Source of the DNA: Escherichia phage vB_vPM_PD06
Sequence record: NC_052653.1
DNA length: 64,000 bases
Strand: one strand, 5' to 3'
The notes under the pieces were generated by a model. That model saw nothing but the letters and a program-made list of their open reading frames with translations, made no database searches and had not been told where the DNA came from. Shown here piece by piece: positions 30,883 to 34,392 of this stretch; within the stretch, counting starts at the first letter, position 1; the number at the start of each line of letters is the position of its first letter. Position numbers and translations under genes: made by a program.

Positions 30883-30958
30883 TGGTCGTGGTAAACGGAG
30901 TCGAACCGTTGTTTCTCGATTATCGGTCGAGTGTACTAACCATCTGTACGATACCACA
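30883..30958 (-). tRNA. tRNA-Ile (anticodon GAT)
   Basis: Hand fold: 7 bp acceptor (U1-G72), T arm AACGG/TTCGACT/CCGTT, anticodon stem CTCGA/TCGAG, loop CCGATAA (C at position 33 is unusual), CCA encoded. Confidence 0.55.
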
Positions 30959-30963
30959 ATAAT

Positions 30964-31060
30964 TGGCAGCAAGGTGAGGAATCGAACCCCTTGATCTATG
31001 GTTTGGAGCCATATTGAGTACCATACTCTTTTAAATCTACCCAGCTATGAGTTCCTTGAG
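30964..31060 (-). ncRNA. tRNA-like sequence with Trp-type (CCA) anticodon hairpin, non-canonical 5' half
   Basis: T arm AGGGG/TTCGATT/CCTCA, 3' acceptor CCTTGCT-G-CCA, perfect hairpin TATGG-CTCCAAA-CCATA and D-like GAGT...ACTC, but no matching 5' acceptor strand at canonical distance. Confidence 0.3.
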
Positions 31061-31104
31061 GTGTCAATGTAATTTAATCATTACACCAGAAGGGAGGTAT
31101 TTAG

Positions 31105-31183
31105 TGGAGGCGGGAATCGGATTTGAACCGATGATCTCCAGCATATGAAACTGGCGAGGACGACCAGACTCCTCTATCCCGCG
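31105..31183 (-). tRNA. tRNA with CAT anticodon (elongator Met or Ile2 type)
   Basis: T arm ATCGG/TTCAAAT/CCGAT, anticodon stem CCAGT/GCTGG, loop TTCATAT, 11-nt D loop; position 1-72 is an unpaired C-C. Confidence 0.5.
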
Positions 31184-31198
31184 CAATCTGTAATAATT

Positions 31199-31283
31199 TG
31201 GTAGCTAAGGTGAGACTCGAACTCACAATCCCTTGGGGCAATACGTTCTAAGCGTATCGTGTATACCATTCCACCACTTAGCC
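31199..31283 (-). tRNA. tRNA-Leu (anticodon TAG), type II
   Basis: 85 nt; acceptor GGCTAAG/CTTAGCT, anticodon stem ATACG/CGTAT, loop CTTAGAA, long variable arm, T arm GTGAG/TTCGAGT/CTCAC, CCA encoded. Confidence 0.6.
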
Positions 31284-31360
31284 ATAATAAGTACACCACT
31301 GTAAGAAGCCTCAATGTGCTATTGACAGTTAACCAAGTCTACTCCTTGGATGGTGTTATT

Positions 31361-31435
31361 TGGTGCAGAGAGATGGTAACGATCCATCCTTTCTACCTTT
31401 TCAGGGTAGCACTAATCCGTCTCAGCTATCTCTGC
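31361..31435 (-). tRNA. tRNA-Phe (anticodon GAA)
   Basis: Perfect acceptor GCAGAGA/TCTCTGC, anticodon stem CTACC/GGTAG, loop CTGAAAA; T loop ATCGTTA is atypical. Confidence 0.5.
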
Positions 31436-31440
31436 AAATT

Positions 31441-31516
31441 TGGTCAGTGCGGCAGGACTCGAACCTGCGACCTGAAGCGTCCAAGGCTCCCACGCTACCA
31501 ACTGCGCTACGCACTG
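31441..31516 (-). tRNA. tRNA-Pro (anticodon TGG)
   Basis: 76 nt; acceptor CAGTGCG/CGCACTG, D arm GCGC/AGTTGGTA/GCGT, anticodon loop CTTGGAC, T arm GCAGG/TTCGAGT/CCTGC, CCA encoded. Confidence 0.7.
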
Positions 31517-31523
31517 TAAATCT

Positions 31524-31598
31524 TGGCTGGAGATCTAGGAATCGAACCTAGTCATCACGACTTCAAAGGCCGTTGCCTTCCCACTAGGCTAATCTCCA
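31524..31598 (-). tRNA. tRNA-Gln (anticodon TTG)
   Basis: 75 nt; acceptor TGGAGAT/ATCTCCA, anticodon stem ACGGC/GTCGT, loop CTTTGAA, T arm CTAGG/TTCGATT/CCTAG, CCA encoded. Confidence 0.6.
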
Positions 31599-32029
31599 AT
31601 AAATTACTTCAGTGTTACCACAAAGTGACGAACTGCTTTTCGTGCAGCAGAAGCCAGAGGCTTAGCATACTTAAGTTCATCTTTTTCCATTATAAATTCT
31701 CTTTTAAATGAAAATGCAGGACTTATTGGCATTGCCTGCGCAAGCCCTCAAGGGGAACATAGGTTTTTGGATATTTAACGACCAGGATAACCATAAACCC
31801 GTCATCATTCACATTCAAGAGGTACACCATAAAACTGCCGGGGTCTTAAAACTATAATGATTCGCAAATCATTAATCAGACAGTTCGATGGCTCCTCGAT
31901 TTTAGCTCACACTAAGGCAGTGAATCTCCAATAAACTAAAAAATCACTTAAAAAGAACCGCTAGAGTTTGAAGGAGAAAACCATGAGCGAAAAGAGAAAT
32001 TTTCTCTAGCGATTCCATTTAAATAATCT

Positions 32030-32104
32030 TGGAGCGAGTAACAGGACTTGAACCTGCACCTGGAGGGTGGAAACCTCATATGCTACCATTAACACTATAC
32101 CCGC
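32030..32104 (-). tRNA. tRNA-Gly (anticodon TCC)
   Basis: 75 nt; acceptor GCGGGTA/TACTCGC, anticodon loop TTTCCAC closed by a 4 bp stem with one mismatch, T arm GCAGG/TTCAAGT/CCTGT, CCA encoded. Confidence 0.5.
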
Positions 32105-32159
32105 TTAACAATATTACTCTAACATACTATTAGCCCCTTTGTCAAGAGGCTTTTGATAC

Positions 32160-32489
32160 TTATTTTAAAATAGTAGATGCACCACGTCTGTTTAGATATG
32201 CAATAGTAAAGTCCAAATCACCTATTTCTTCAGGTTCCCACTGACCTTCTAAGCCATAACAAGAACAATGATATGCGTGTACTTCATAAAACAAAGATGT
32301 TTTCATATCATAAAAATAAACGTGAGATTCACCTTCATAATATGCACAATCATAAGTGGCAGAAAGAATTACAATGTTATCCTTATCTAACTCTACTTCA
32401 TAATATCTTTCAACATCTTCAATATCATCAAAACCATCGAAAACATTGATATTAAAATATTTCTCTAACTCTTTTTCTGTCACATACAC
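32160..32489 (-). CDS. hypothetical protein inside tRNA array
   Basis: 109 aa acidic, Tyr/Cys-rich ORF between tRNA-Gly and tRNA-Thr. Confidence 0.45.
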   Translation of the reverse strand: MYVTEKELEKYFNINVFDGFDDIEDVERYYEVELDKDNIVILSATYDCAYYEGESHVYFYDMKTSLFYEVHAYHCSCYGLEGQWEPEEIGDLDFTIAYLNRRGASTILK

Positions 32490-32506
32490 TCCTTTAGAGT
32501 TAAAAT

Positions 32507-32581
32507 TGGTGCTCCCACAAGGACTCGAACCCTGATAAGTTGCTTACAAGGCAACCGTAATAGCCGTTATACGATAGGAGC
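32507..32581 (-). tRNA. tRNA-Thr (anticodon TGT)
   Basis: 75 nt; acceptor GCTCCTA/TGGGAGC, anticodon stem GTTGC/GCAAC, loop CTTGTAA, T arm CAGGG/TTCGAGT/CCTTG, CCA encoded. Confidence 0.6.
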
Positions 32582-32587
32582 AATACT

Positions 32588-32664
32588 TGGACTCGGCAGG
32601 ATTCGATACCTGCAATTCCAGAAGCCTCTTGGCGACTGGGGGTTTACCTTAACTCTACAAGTCC
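32588..32664 (-). ncRNA. tRNA-like sequence, non-canonical interior
   Basis: 7 bp acceptor-like pairing GGACTTG/CGAGTCC and perfect T stem GCAGG/CCTGC around 8-nt loop TATCGAAT, but no canonical 5-7-5 anticodon arm. Confidence 0.25.
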
Positions 32665-32671
32665 ATAATTC

Positions 32672-32756
32672 TGGCGATGGATCAAGGATTTGAACCTTGC
32701 TAGAACTTTCGTTCACGGATTAACAGTCCGTCGCCCAACCACTAGGCCAATCCATC
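32672..32756 (-). tRNA. tRNA with Asn anticodon (GTT) and a long variable arm (type II-like)
   Basis: 85 nt; acceptor GATGGAT/ATCCATC, anticodon arm ACGGA-CTGTTAA-TCCGT, 15-nt variable region GAACGAAAGTTCTAG forming a GAAC/GTTC stem with GAAA loop, T arm CAAGG/TTCAAAT/CCTTG, CCA encoded. Confidence 0.5.
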
Positions 32757-32763
32757 TTTAATT

Positions 32764-32850
32764 TGGTGCAGGTAGTTGGACTCGAACCAACGAAGCCCCG
32801 AAGGGCAAGAGATTTACAGTCTCCAGCAATTGCCGCTATGCGATACCTAC
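32764..32850 (-). tRNA. tRNA-Tyr (anticodon GTA), type II
   Basis: 87 nt; acceptor GTAGGTA/TACCTGC, anticodon stem GGAGA/TCTCT, loop CTGTAAA, variable arm GCCC-TTCG-GGGC, T arm GTTGG/TTCGAGT/CCAAC, CCA encoded. Confidence 0.65.
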
Positions 32851-32855
32851 GTGTT

Positions 32856-32931
32856 TGGTACATCGTGAAGGATTCGAACCTTCGACCTTGGAGTTAAAAG
32901 CACCTTGCTCTACCAACTAAGCTAACGATGT
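32856..32931 (-). tRNA. tRNA-Lys (anticodon TTT) with weakly paired anticodon stem
   Basis: 76 nt; perfect acceptor ACATCGT/ACGATGT, D arm GCTT/AGTTGGTA/GAGC, T arm GAAGG/TTCGAAT/CCTTC; anticodon loop CTTTTAA flanked by AGGTG/CTCCA with two mismatches. Confidence 0.5.
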
Positions 32932-33065
32932 ATAAATTATCTTTAAAATAGCCAGTGTTTGCGGCACTTAGCTATGAAGTATTGGGGTATCGGTAAAGTG
33001 GTTACCGCCACTTGCCGAAAGTTTACTCTGCTAAAGTAAGATTACAAGCTACATTAAAGATAACT

Positions 33066-33151
33066 TGGCGGTAGATGTAGGACTTGAACCTACACGCCGT
33101 TTCCGACGACAGTTTAGCAAACTGTTGTGGCTACCATTTCACCAATCTACC
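33066..33151 (-). tRNA. tRNA-Ser (anticodon GCT), type II
   Basis: 86 nt; acceptor GGTAGAT/ATCTACC, anticodon stem ACAGT/ACTGT, loop TTGCTAA, variable arm CGTCG-GAAA-CGGCG, T arm GTAGG/TTCAAGT/CCTAC, CCA encoded. Confidence 0.65.
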
Positions 33152-33159
33152 GTTCTTAA

Positions 33160-33312
33160 TTATTCAAAACAACCGGAATCTTTTTGTTCTGCTTTTACCA
33201 TACGAATATTTTTACCATCTTCAGATTGTTGAAGATTAGAATACTCATAAACAACTTTATTATCTACAATCTTAACTCCGGTAACAACCTGTCCAATAGT
33301 TTTATAATTCAT
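33160..33312 (-). CDS. small hypothetical protein (50 aa)
   Basis: Six-frame ORF 33160-33360 overlaps tRNA-Ser at its 5' end; internal ATG at 33312 has AGGAG upstream. Confidence 0.3.
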   Translation of the reverse strand: MNYKTIGQVVTGVKIVDNKVVYEYSNLQQSEDGKNIRMVKAEQKDSGCFE

Positions 33313-33330
33313 AAAGCTCCTAGTTGAATT

Positions 33331-33420
33331 TGGAGGAAGATAATGGAGTCGAACCATCACCGTATCGCTACAATGGGCCAGGGTTCAAACCTGGTTGCGC
33401 ACCGCTGCGCCCTACCTTCC
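33331..33420 (-). tRNA. tRNA-Ser (anticodon TGA), type II
   Basis: 90 nt; acceptor GGAAGGT/ATCTTCC, anticodon stem CCAGG/CCTGG, loop TTTGAAC, ~19-nt variable arm, T arm GATGG/TTCGACT/CCATT, CCA encoded. Confidence 0.6.
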
Positions 33421-33435
33421 CGTTATCATACTTTA

Positions 33436-33465
33436 AATCTAACATAAAACTATCTTGCTTGTCAA
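33436..33465 (-). promoter_or_regulatory. candidate sigma70-like promoter inside tRNA array
   Basis: Minus strand TTGACA, 18-nt spacer, TAGATT; upstream of tRNA-Ser(TGA). Confidence 0.3.
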
Positions 33466-33483
33466 GTAGTTTTTAAAACTTTT

Positions 33484-33565
33484 TGGTCGGGGTGACAGGA
33501 TTCGAACCTGCATACTCCAATTACTCGGTTAACGCCTGATTAGAAGTCAGGTGAGATACACCCCG
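33484..33565 (-). ncRNA. tRNA-Arg(TCT)-like sequence lacking a canonical D arm
   Basis: 7 bp GC-rich acceptor CGGGGTG/CACCCCG, T arm GCAGG/TTCGAAT/CCTGT, perfect hairpin CCTGA-CTTCTAA-TCAGG, but only 7 nt between acceptor and that hairpin and a 23-nt insert before the T arm. Confidence 0.35.
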
Positions 33566-33637
33566 TTTTCACAGTAACTATAACAAAAAACTAAGTGAAT
33601 GTCAAGATATTTTTACTAAAATTATTATTTAAATTGA

Positions 33638-33743
33638 AGCCTAGTTATGGAATCGAACCATATTTCGTATTTAGTTAGACAAAGCGGTCTAACATATTTT
33701 TCAGGCTTTGATGGCCTCGGAATTACCAAATACCCTACTAGGC
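33638..33743 (-). ncRNA. 106-nt tRNA-like element
   Basis: T arm TATGG/TTCGATT/CCATA and exact 7 bp acceptor pairing GCCTAGT/ACTAGGC 106 nt apart; interior has hairpins AGGC-CATCAAA-GCCT and GTTAGAC-CGCTTT-GTCTAAC; no CCA encoded. Confidence 0.25.
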
Positions 33744-33745
33744 GT

Positions 33746-33831
33746 TGGTGCAAGTGGAGGGATTCGAACCCTCAATCATTTAAGCGTTGCGTTTTAAGCA
33801 CAATGTGTATCACCAATTCCACCACACTTGC
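33746..33831 (-). tRNA. tRNA-Leu (anticodon TAA), type II
   Basis: 86 nt; acceptor GCAAGTG/CACTTGC, anticodon stem TTGTG/CGCAA, loop CTTAAAA, T arm GAGGG/TTCGAAT/CCCTC, CCA encoded. Confidence 0.6.
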
Positions 33832-33862
33832 ATATAGGAGATGCATAGCATCTCCTTTTAAA

Positions 33863-33938
33863 TGGTGGTTCCCCAGGGTTACAATCCCTGCCCTCGACAC
33901 TTATGAGGTGTGCGCTCTCGTCAGTGAGCTATGGAACC
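33863..33938 (-). tRNA. tRNA with CAT anticodon (second copy; Met or Ile2 type)
   Basis: 76 nt; D arm GCTC/GAGC perfect, anticodon loop CTCATAA, T stem CAGGG/CCCTG with atypical loop ATTGTAA, acceptor has one mismatch at 7-66. Confidence 0.45.
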
Positions 33939-34212: not shown

Positions 34213-34392
34213 AGTTTTCTCCTTTTTGTTTAACTTGGGCTTATCTTAGCAAATAACTAGCTATGTTGTCAACTAGTTTTTACAATATTTTTTCTTGATC
34301 TGTAACCTAGTGTATAACCGCATACAAAGGATACAATAGCAATAAAAACAGATAAGCCAAAAATAATTTCTGTAGACATACTGTTTCCTTAA

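Follow-up and report, generated by a model that had tools for sequence, protein, structure and literature searches.

In the tRNA cluster of a virulent phi92-like coliphage we find genes with genuine non-canonical features, and we read them, with moderate confidence, as functional and selectively maintained phage tRNA genes. They comprise a tRNA-Lys(UUU) that carries the host anticodon loop on a remodelled anticodon stem and a tRNA-Ile(GAU) with C at position 33, both of which may withstand nucleases that cut host tRNAs, and two tRNAs whose unusual T loops are structurally compensated variants of the tRNA elbow. Phage tRNA clusters have long been attributed to codon usage, and recent work has shown that some of the encoded tRNAs stand in for those of the host and withstand its tRNA nucleases. 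The genes described here belong to this known kind, the phage-encoded replacement tRNA with an altered anticodon arm; the most interesting new element is the specificity of C33 for the tRNA-Ile(GAU) of viruses and tRNA arrays.

The window, a stretch of 64,000 nucleotides from Escherichia phage vB_vPM_PD06 (sequence record NC_052653.1), belongs to a phage of the genus Justusliebigvirus (phi92-like; Stephanstirmvirinae), and its 3.2-kb tRNA region shares 97-99% identity with that of some 50 members of this genus besides Escherichia phage phi92 itself. In this cluster, which extends from 30883 to 33938, ARAGORN recovers 15 tRNA genes; all of them are on the minus strand, and every one has an encoded CCA end. 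Four strong sigma-70-like matches, with a perfect TTGACA and an extended -10 element, precede subsets of these genes in a consensus scan, and a terminator-like hairpin lies downstream of the last of them. At the site of a weak Rfam 'RyhB' match downstream of tRNA-Ile (30751-30769, minus strand) there is a terminator-like hairpin with a T run after it; the match probably marks where transcription of the tRNA unit ends, and not a small RNA. In the literature on Justusliebigvirus tRNAs we found nothing specific; one preprint reports only sensitivity of the genus to the ApeA nuclease.

Structures were checked with ARAGORN and with Infernal using the Rfam tRNA covariance model (RF00005; gathering threshold 29 bits). 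Conservation was assessed in an alignment of the cluster from 17 genomes, namely the window, 13 isolates and three metagenomic contigs. As a viral background we used 1322 unique tRNAs from 120 loci (0.98 Mb) that were retrieved by a pattern scan of IMG/VR for tRNA-Ile-like sequences. Alleles of tRNA-Lys were counted in 53 Justusliebigvirus database records, with the window counted separately; a further search of IMG/VR and metagenomes via the shared T arm and acceptor yielded three contigs only, and the census hence rests on the GenBank phage collection. Four of the records used (MG065639, MG065645, MG065656 and MG065689) are UNVERIFIED GenBank entries labelled 'Campylobacter phage' that represent near-identical Justusliebigvirus genomes, and their label looks doubtful.

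The initial annotation had described two mismatches in the anticodon stem of tRNA-Lys, C at position 33 of tRNA-Ile, and T loops starting with A in tRNA-Phe and one CAU tRNA, and had allowed that all of these could be hand-folding errors. Automated folding refutes such errors, as it returns the same boundaries and the same deviations. ARAGORN and the Rfam model both mark A27·A43 and U30·U40 of tRNA-Lys as non-pairs, and both recover the loop CCGAUAA of tRNA-Ile and the T loop AUCGUUA of tRNA-Phe; the T loop AUUGUAA of the CAU tRNA comes from ARAGORN alone, this tRNA not being reported by the Rfam model even at E<=10. Neither tool returned canonical stems and loops with other boundaries, and none of the alternative folding registers yields canonical stems. 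Among the 1322 viral tRNAs a residue other than U33 occurs in 4.2%, A54 in 2.5% and a 30:40 mismatch in 1.8%, and mismatches at both 27:43 and 30:40 in 2 of 1322, so that the deviations are rare but not unique to the source phage.

Table. Features of the tRNA cluster, with positions in the window
Feature	Position	Strand	Characteristics	Detection
tRNA-Lys(UUU), type A	32856-32931	-	anticodon stem AGGUG/CUCCA	ARAGORN and Rfam tRNA model, identical boundaries
tRNA-Ile(GAU)	30883-30958	-	anticodon loop CCGAUAA; C33 at 30925	ARAGORN and Rfam tRNA model (57.3 bits)
tRNA-Phe(GAA)	31361-31435	-	T loop AUCGUUA (31377-31383); reversed A54-U58	ARAGORN; Rfam tRNA model (49.2 bits)
CAU tRNA (Met or Ile2 type)	33863-33938	-	T loop AUUGUAA (33879-33885); D loop ACUGACGA	ARAGORN alone
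tRNA-Thr(UGU)	32507-32581	-	anticodon arm GUUGC-CUUGUAA-GCAAC; G39 for host U39	
tRNA-Asn(GUU)	32672-32756	-	85 nt; 3-bp D stem; 4-bp variable arm (class II shape); host-like anticodon arm	ARAGORN and Rfam tRNA model
tRNA-Tyr(GUA)	32764-32850	-	adjoins tRNA-Lys; block Thr-Asn-Tyr-Lys	ARAGORN
tRNA-like gene, Arg UCU	33487-33565	-	anticodon loop CUUCUAA	Rfam tRNA model (40 bits); missed by ARAGORN
Sigma-70-like promoter	32116-32145	-	TTGACA, 18 nt, TAGAGT, TG extension; upstream of tRNA-Gly	consensus scan alone
Similar sigma-70-like site	33436-33465			consensus scan alone
Similar sigma-70-like site	33577-33605			consensus scan alone
Similar sigma-70-like site	34243-34272			consensus scan alone

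The tRNA-Lys has the highest Rfam score of the cluster (66 bits). Its mismatched residues lie at 32905/32889 (A27·A43) and 32902/32892 (U30·U40), on either side of the loop CUUUUAA with the anticodon at 32896-32898. A non-cloverleaf gene model, which the minimum-free-energy fold of the unmodified RNA prefers, was rejected and taken as a sign of a weak stem. Across the 53 genus records the gene occurs in two allele families with common acceptor and T arms, which differ at 16 positions between nucleotides 11 and 47, i.e. in the D and anticodon arms. Type A, found in 42 of the records and in the window, is characterized by the D arm GCUU-AGUUGGUA-GAGC and by CUCCA as the 3' stem strand. In type B (the other 11, with zero variation) the D arm is another one and includes C16, and all positions of the stem CUUGA/UCAAG are paired. 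The 5' stem strand of type A is in turn variable: the majority form AGGGG, with a G30·U40 wobble, is present in about 28 records; AGGG, with one G deleted, in seven, of which UAB_1 additionally has C41A; AGGUG in five besides the window, namely phiWec187 and the four near-identical 'Campylobacter phage' records; and AGGGU in two, both of them phi92 (the same phage). The A27·A43 mismatch is thus fixed in type A, and U30·U40 is a rare derived G-to-T change in the GGGG run. The forms with the one-G deletion, including UAB_1 with its extra C41A, are probably loss-of-function alleles.

In the viral sample the 27:43 pair is mismatched in 13.6% of the 1322 tRNAs, with a rate of 48% in tRNA-Lys(UUU) as against 12% otherwise, and of 40% in tRNA-Arg(UCU). 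Since the rate varies by tRNA type and the baseline is one of viral tRNAs only, we do not take this mismatch for a phage-specific mark of tRNA-Lys. The 30:40 pair, mismatched in 1.8% overall, is mismatched in none of the 52 viral tRNA-Lys(UUU), 47 of which keep G30-C40, which makes U40 unusual. The host-like U39-C40-A41 is kept by only two of the 52.

These last positions are those read by a stem-cutting host nuclease. AriB, of the PARIS defence system, cuts the tRNA-Lys of E. coli between nucleotides 40 and 41, within U36-A-A-U-C|A41 (i.e. after C40), and its action is abolished by U39A, inhibited by A41C and impaired by the D-loop change U16C, with modifications not required. The window tRNA-Lys reads U-A-A-C-U-C from 36 to 41, with C39-U40-C41 for the host U39-C40-A41, and retains U16; in type B the stretch is the host's U-A-A-U-C-A, but position 16 is C. 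Hence, each family departs from the host in one of the two proposed contact regions of the AriB dimer, type A at 39-41 and type B at C16. Both the anticodon UUU and the loop CUUUUAA of the window tRNA-Lys are those of E. coli tRNA-Lys, and loop-reading enzymes such as PrrC are thus not evaded by sequence.

A close parallel is the tRNA-Lys(UUU) of T5, which counters PARIS (Burman et al. 2024; Belukhina et al. 2025), agrees with the window tRNA in anticodon and loop (CUUUUAA), is likewise encoded in the tRNA cluster of a large virulent coliphage, and has a stem that also differs from that of E. coli at 39 and 41. The 27:43 pair is mismatched in both, as C·U in T5 and A·A in the window. The two stems are nevertheless without sequence relationship: T5 has A39-C40-C41 together with C16, whereas the window has C39-U40-C41, U16 and the additional U30·U40; and resistance, which is experimental for the T5 tRNA, is a prediction for that of the window. 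The two-mismatch pattern itself recurs in the tRNA-Asn(GUU) of T5, where ARAGORN gives G27·A43 and U30·U40, and this tRNA belongs to the trio of T5 tRNAs whose co-expression neutralizes PARIS; the amino-acid identity differs, and in the tRNA-Asn of the window itself the stem is host-like with every position paired, and the variable arm is long. In the 245-tRNA library screen of the P2-OLD study most coliphage tRNA-Lys suppressed AriB toxicity, as judged by cell rescue.

A second Toprim nuclease, P2-OLD, cuts after C28 and after nucleotide 40, and phage tRNA-Thr resists it through a changed 30:40 pair together with U43A, by which the 27:43 pair is lost, both changes being required (Govande et al. 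2025). The resistant tRNAs, coliphage tRNA-Thr6 and the tRNA-Thr of phage 21, are thus altered at the same two pairs as the window tRNA-Lys; however, they are tRNA-Thr(UGU) facing an enzyme that needs a paired CNG motif. The stem of E. coli tRNA-Lys, GUUGA/UCAAU, has neither C28 nor G42 and so lacks the paired motif that defines OLD substrates, for which reason P2-OLD is not an established threat to tRNA-Lys. The window tRNA-Lys has A·A at 27:43 and no CNG motif. General avoidance of this motif was considered and rejected, the motif being kept in four tRNAs of the window and in 35 of the 52 viral tRNA-Lys.

The window tRNA-Lys retains the host anticodon loop that is required for decoding and for recognition by LysRS, on a remodelled stem with no 27:43 pair, a non-Watson-Crick 30:40 and C39-U40-C41. 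We infer that it acts as a spare which would outlast those host nucleases whose cuts fall within the anticodon stem, Toprim enzymes such as the AriB of PARIS, so that the phage could go on translating AAA codons once the host tRNA-Lys has been destroyed. To this extent the adaptive interpretation of the initial annotation has indirect support, with nuclease evasion by the tRNA-Lys being plausible on the basis of its sequence. These phages thus present a second coliphage lineage in which the tRNA-Lys departs from that of the host at the very positions recognized by a stem-cutting nuclease, and in two alternative ways, for both of which natural alleles exist.

Tolerated drift at a mutational hot spot offers a possible, if somewhat doubtful, alternative, under which type A is relaxed and U30·U40 is a neutral or mildly harmful, non-adaptive G-to-T change. 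The U30·U40 mismatch may be neutral in itself. Every change of the type A 5' strand away from the majority AGGGG (GGUG, GGGU and the one-G deletion) sits in the one GGGG run, which makes a hot spot possible, and another GGGG run, in the tRNA-Tyr of AV123, likewise shows a G-to-T change. The roughly seven events in the 76 nucleotides of type A amount to a rate similar to that of the spacers, and some of them break the stem, including the further change in UAB_1; nearest-neighbour folding predicts a cost of 3.5 kcal/mol for G30U and a fall in stem pairing probability from 0.46 to 0.003. On the other hand, four of the seven events fall within the 10 stem nucleotides of the 76 (p = 0.0075) and the other arms are invariant, the GGGG run of the CAU tRNA never varies, and the T5 tRNA-Asn with the same mismatch pattern contributes to rescue from PARIS when co-expressed. 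Moreover, the GGUG allele is known from Japan, the USA and the window, and within the recombinationally mosaic flanks of the tRNA-Lys gene its haplotype in the window is not that of phiWec187, which indicates that the allele persists in nature.

Conflict with a homing endonuclease, in which host nucleases would have no part, is an unlikely source of the two families and of the variation within the gene, although the locus has features that recall it. In five of the 11 type B records an ORF for a 126-aa putative homing endonuclease lies 3 nt upstream of tRNA-Lys, its last seven codons and stop falling inside nucleotides 1-21 of the tRNA and ending in the D loop. It is absent from that place in all 14 type A loci fetched, and the remaining type A records have no annotation of one at the tRNA. 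The divergence between the families is a 37-nt patch that starts beside the insertion site, the flanks being otherwise identical, and target-site immunity with co-conversion could account for this patch. The mosaic flanks agree with such a history, and HNH endonuclease genes of T5 likewise abut tRNA genes. Yet the ORF is absent from six of the 11 type B records, and the proposal leaves the missing 27:43 pair of type A unexplained and is silent on the tRNA-Ile, tRNA-Phe and CAU tRNA. A Pfam search gave no match for the 126-aa protein, for which reason we do not call it HNH. The ORF is found at positions 2240-2620 of the relative L016 and also in L006 and L012, and endonuclease genes are present elsewhere in the cluster in UAB_1 and SD2.

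The case of tRNA-Ile(GAU) is of a different kind, in that its deviation recurs well beyond the genus. The loop CCGAUAA is present in 53 of 53 Justusliebigvirus records, and the same loop is found on different stems in five lineages: Stephanstirmvirinae (Justusliebigvirus), Ackermannviridae (CRW-SP2), Schitoviridae (phiEaP8), Demerecviridae (IME260) and Straboviridae (LC53). The tRNA-Ile of T5, of a Kuttervirus and of an Erskinevirus have U33 instead. In the viral sample C33 is carried by 22 of 96 unique tRNA-Ile(GAU) (23%) versus 24 of the 1226 other tRNAs (2%), an enrichment of about 11-fold (odds ratio 15; p = 1.6e-14), and the acceptor stems of the 22 are very diverse. Fixation within the genus, recurrence in unrelated phage families and enrichment in viral tRNA-Ile(GAU) together argue for selection. 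Positions 30925-30924 on the minus strand deserve mention: on the same tRNA body, C33-G34 (anticodon GAU) stands in all isolates and U33-C34 (anticodon CAU, loop CUCAUAA) in two metagenomic relatives, L004 (8146-8221) and L008, the adjacent bases having changed together.

For cellular genomes the C33 form of the tRNA-Ile pattern was scanned in one genome per species across 185,579 bacterial and archaeal species (GTDB). Of the 34 matches this gave, 26 proved to be tRNAs; all but two of these come from loci that hold four or more tRNAs (24), 17 of them from arrays with no fewer than 10, and none stands beside a 16S rRNA 3' end in these genomes. C33 in tRNA-Ile(GAU) is thus a recurrent trait of viruses and tRNA arrays, specific to mobile elements: frequent in the former, and rare and never beside the 16S end in the single set of cellular genomes to which this pattern was applied. 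Dense arrays with 10-27 tRNAs per 8 kb, each with a C33 tRNA-Ile(GAU), are seen in GTDB contigs L148-L181, which come from both metagenome-assembled and other genomes of many phyla.

Several known activities bear on this position. The toxin CdiA-CT EC536 with CysK cuts E. coli tRNA-Ile(GAU) at C32|U33, and the prophage-encoded HEPN nuclease HepS cuts tRNA-Thr, tRNA-Ile(GAU) and tRNA-Ser(GCU). The window tRNA, with C33 for the U33 of E. coli tRNA-Ile(GAU), differs from the host in the loop at the cleavage site of CdiA-CT EC536, and C33 would be expected to change the loop where cuts are known to fall (32|33), or directly beside such a place. The E. coli enzymes TsaBCDE that form t6A37 cannot modify a U33C initiator tRNA-Met, and given this block C33 may leave A37 of the tRNA-Ile unmodified. 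Since t6A37 reportedly helps charging by IleRS, C33 may also carry a cost. We consider nuclease evasion by the C33 tRNA-Ile plausible from its sequence, and here, too, the adaptive suggestion has indirect support. We found no paper that describes the C33 pattern of viral tRNA-Ile(GAU), and the main text of van den Berg et al. (2023) makes no mention of tRNA-Ile or position 33. The variants of mycobacteriophages and other phages described there place the difference between phage and host tRNA at the cleavage site in the anticodon loop, a scheme into which C33 of tRNA-Ile would fit, whereas the deviation of the window tRNA-Lys is in the stem. The best-known functional C33 tRNAs are the initiator tRNAs of multicellular eukaryotes, which belong to another domain of life, whereas the C33 of the window is in an elongator tRNA-Ile.

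A bolder proposal, which we put forward only tentatively, is that phages and mobile tRNA arrays use C33 of tRNA-Ile(GAU) as a mark dedicated to counter-defence, rendering the tRNA a non-substrate for the host t6A37 machinery, for a tRNA-Ile anticodon nuclease or for both, and that the two tRNA-Lys families are alternative escapes from the two contact sites of a stem-cutting Toprim nuclease, kept as a polymorphism among near-identical phages. The C33 pattern could serve to mark mobile tRNA arrays, or could point to an undiscovered nuclease or to a role of t6A in defence.

The T-loop variants call for another explanation. A54 occurs in 33 of the 1322 viral tRNAs and U58 in 18, always with A54 (18/18; p = 5e-32), while U56 occurs in 12, all 12 of which have a D loop carrying G18-A19. 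This covariation identifies A54-U58 and A19-U56 as structurally compensated variants of the elbow. Both the tRNA-Phe of the window (A54, U58) and its CAU tRNA (A54, U56, U58) conform to it; in the latter A54-U58 and A19-U56 replace T54-A58 and G19-C56, and C27·C43 and A7·G66 are present as well. Initiator tRNAs of multicellular eukaryotes also carry A54, paired with A58; the window tRNAs have U58. As these variants are located outside the anticodon loop, and nothing links them to anticodon nucleases, nuclease evasion is not indicated for them, and the adaptive suggestion, as far as it extended to the T loops, is not upheld.

Across the 17 genomes, the tRNA genes other than tRNA-Lys and the fMet-like gene vary at 11 of 1044 sites (1.05%) versus 112 of 1116 (10%) in the spacers (Fisher p = 8e-22). 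The tRNA-Phe (0/75), the CAU tRNA (0/76) and tRNA-Asn have no variable sites, and tRNA-Ile has two of 76, positions 33 and 34 only. Near-invariance next to spacers that vary at 10% shows purifying selection on the Phe, CAU and Ile tRNAs, which are therefore no pseudogenes. That the four deviations are folding artefacts, or the genes decaying pseudogenes, is therefore contradicted by the data and exceedingly improbable: in spite of the phi92 record, where tRNA-Phe and tRNA-Ser(UGA) are labelled pseudo and the CAU tRNA is entered as a 'hypothetical tRNA', and of the failure of the Rfam model to detect the CAU tRNA, each of the four deviations is borne out by ARAGORN and those of tRNA-Lys, tRNA-Ile and tRNA-Phe also by Infernal, the odd genes are invariant, and the covariation in the elbow indicates a maintained structure. 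On this reading the tRNAs would also be expressed and charged.

Other members of the cluster show peculiarities of their own. The anticodon arm of the tRNA-Thr equals that of T5 tRNA-Thr except at position 42 (A in the window, U in T5). The tRNA-Asn, with its long variable arm, has counterparts of at least 80 nt with similar arms among 7 of 62 viral tRNA-Asn of the IMG/VR sample; to our knowledge a class II shape is otherwise known only for Leu, Ser and bacterial Tyr tRNAs. In the Arg-like gene the acceptor, the anticodon arm and the T arm are normal and CCA is encoded, but only 4 nt take the place of a D arm and the variable region is 20 nt long; it has its own promoter match, TTGACA-17-TATAGT, at 33577-33605, and is present in all 17 relatives, with no more than a single mismatch. 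The fMet-like gene, an initiator-like CAU tRNA (31105-31183, minus strand) with an unpaired C1, U73 and the loop UUCAUAU, is the second hypervariable tRNA of the cluster, with nine alleles in the 17 genomes and 11 of 79 sites variable; the differences include one compensated swap in the T stem and others near the 3' terminus. Finally, the apparent spacers at 33636-33750, 32585-32671 and 30960-31040 (minus strand) contain tRNA-like remnants, in which long insertions accompany a stem like that of an acceptor and the T arm GGUUCGAUUCC; these are at least 97.6% identical where present in relatives and resemble the 'tRNA-like stable RNAs' annotated in the tRNA region of T5.
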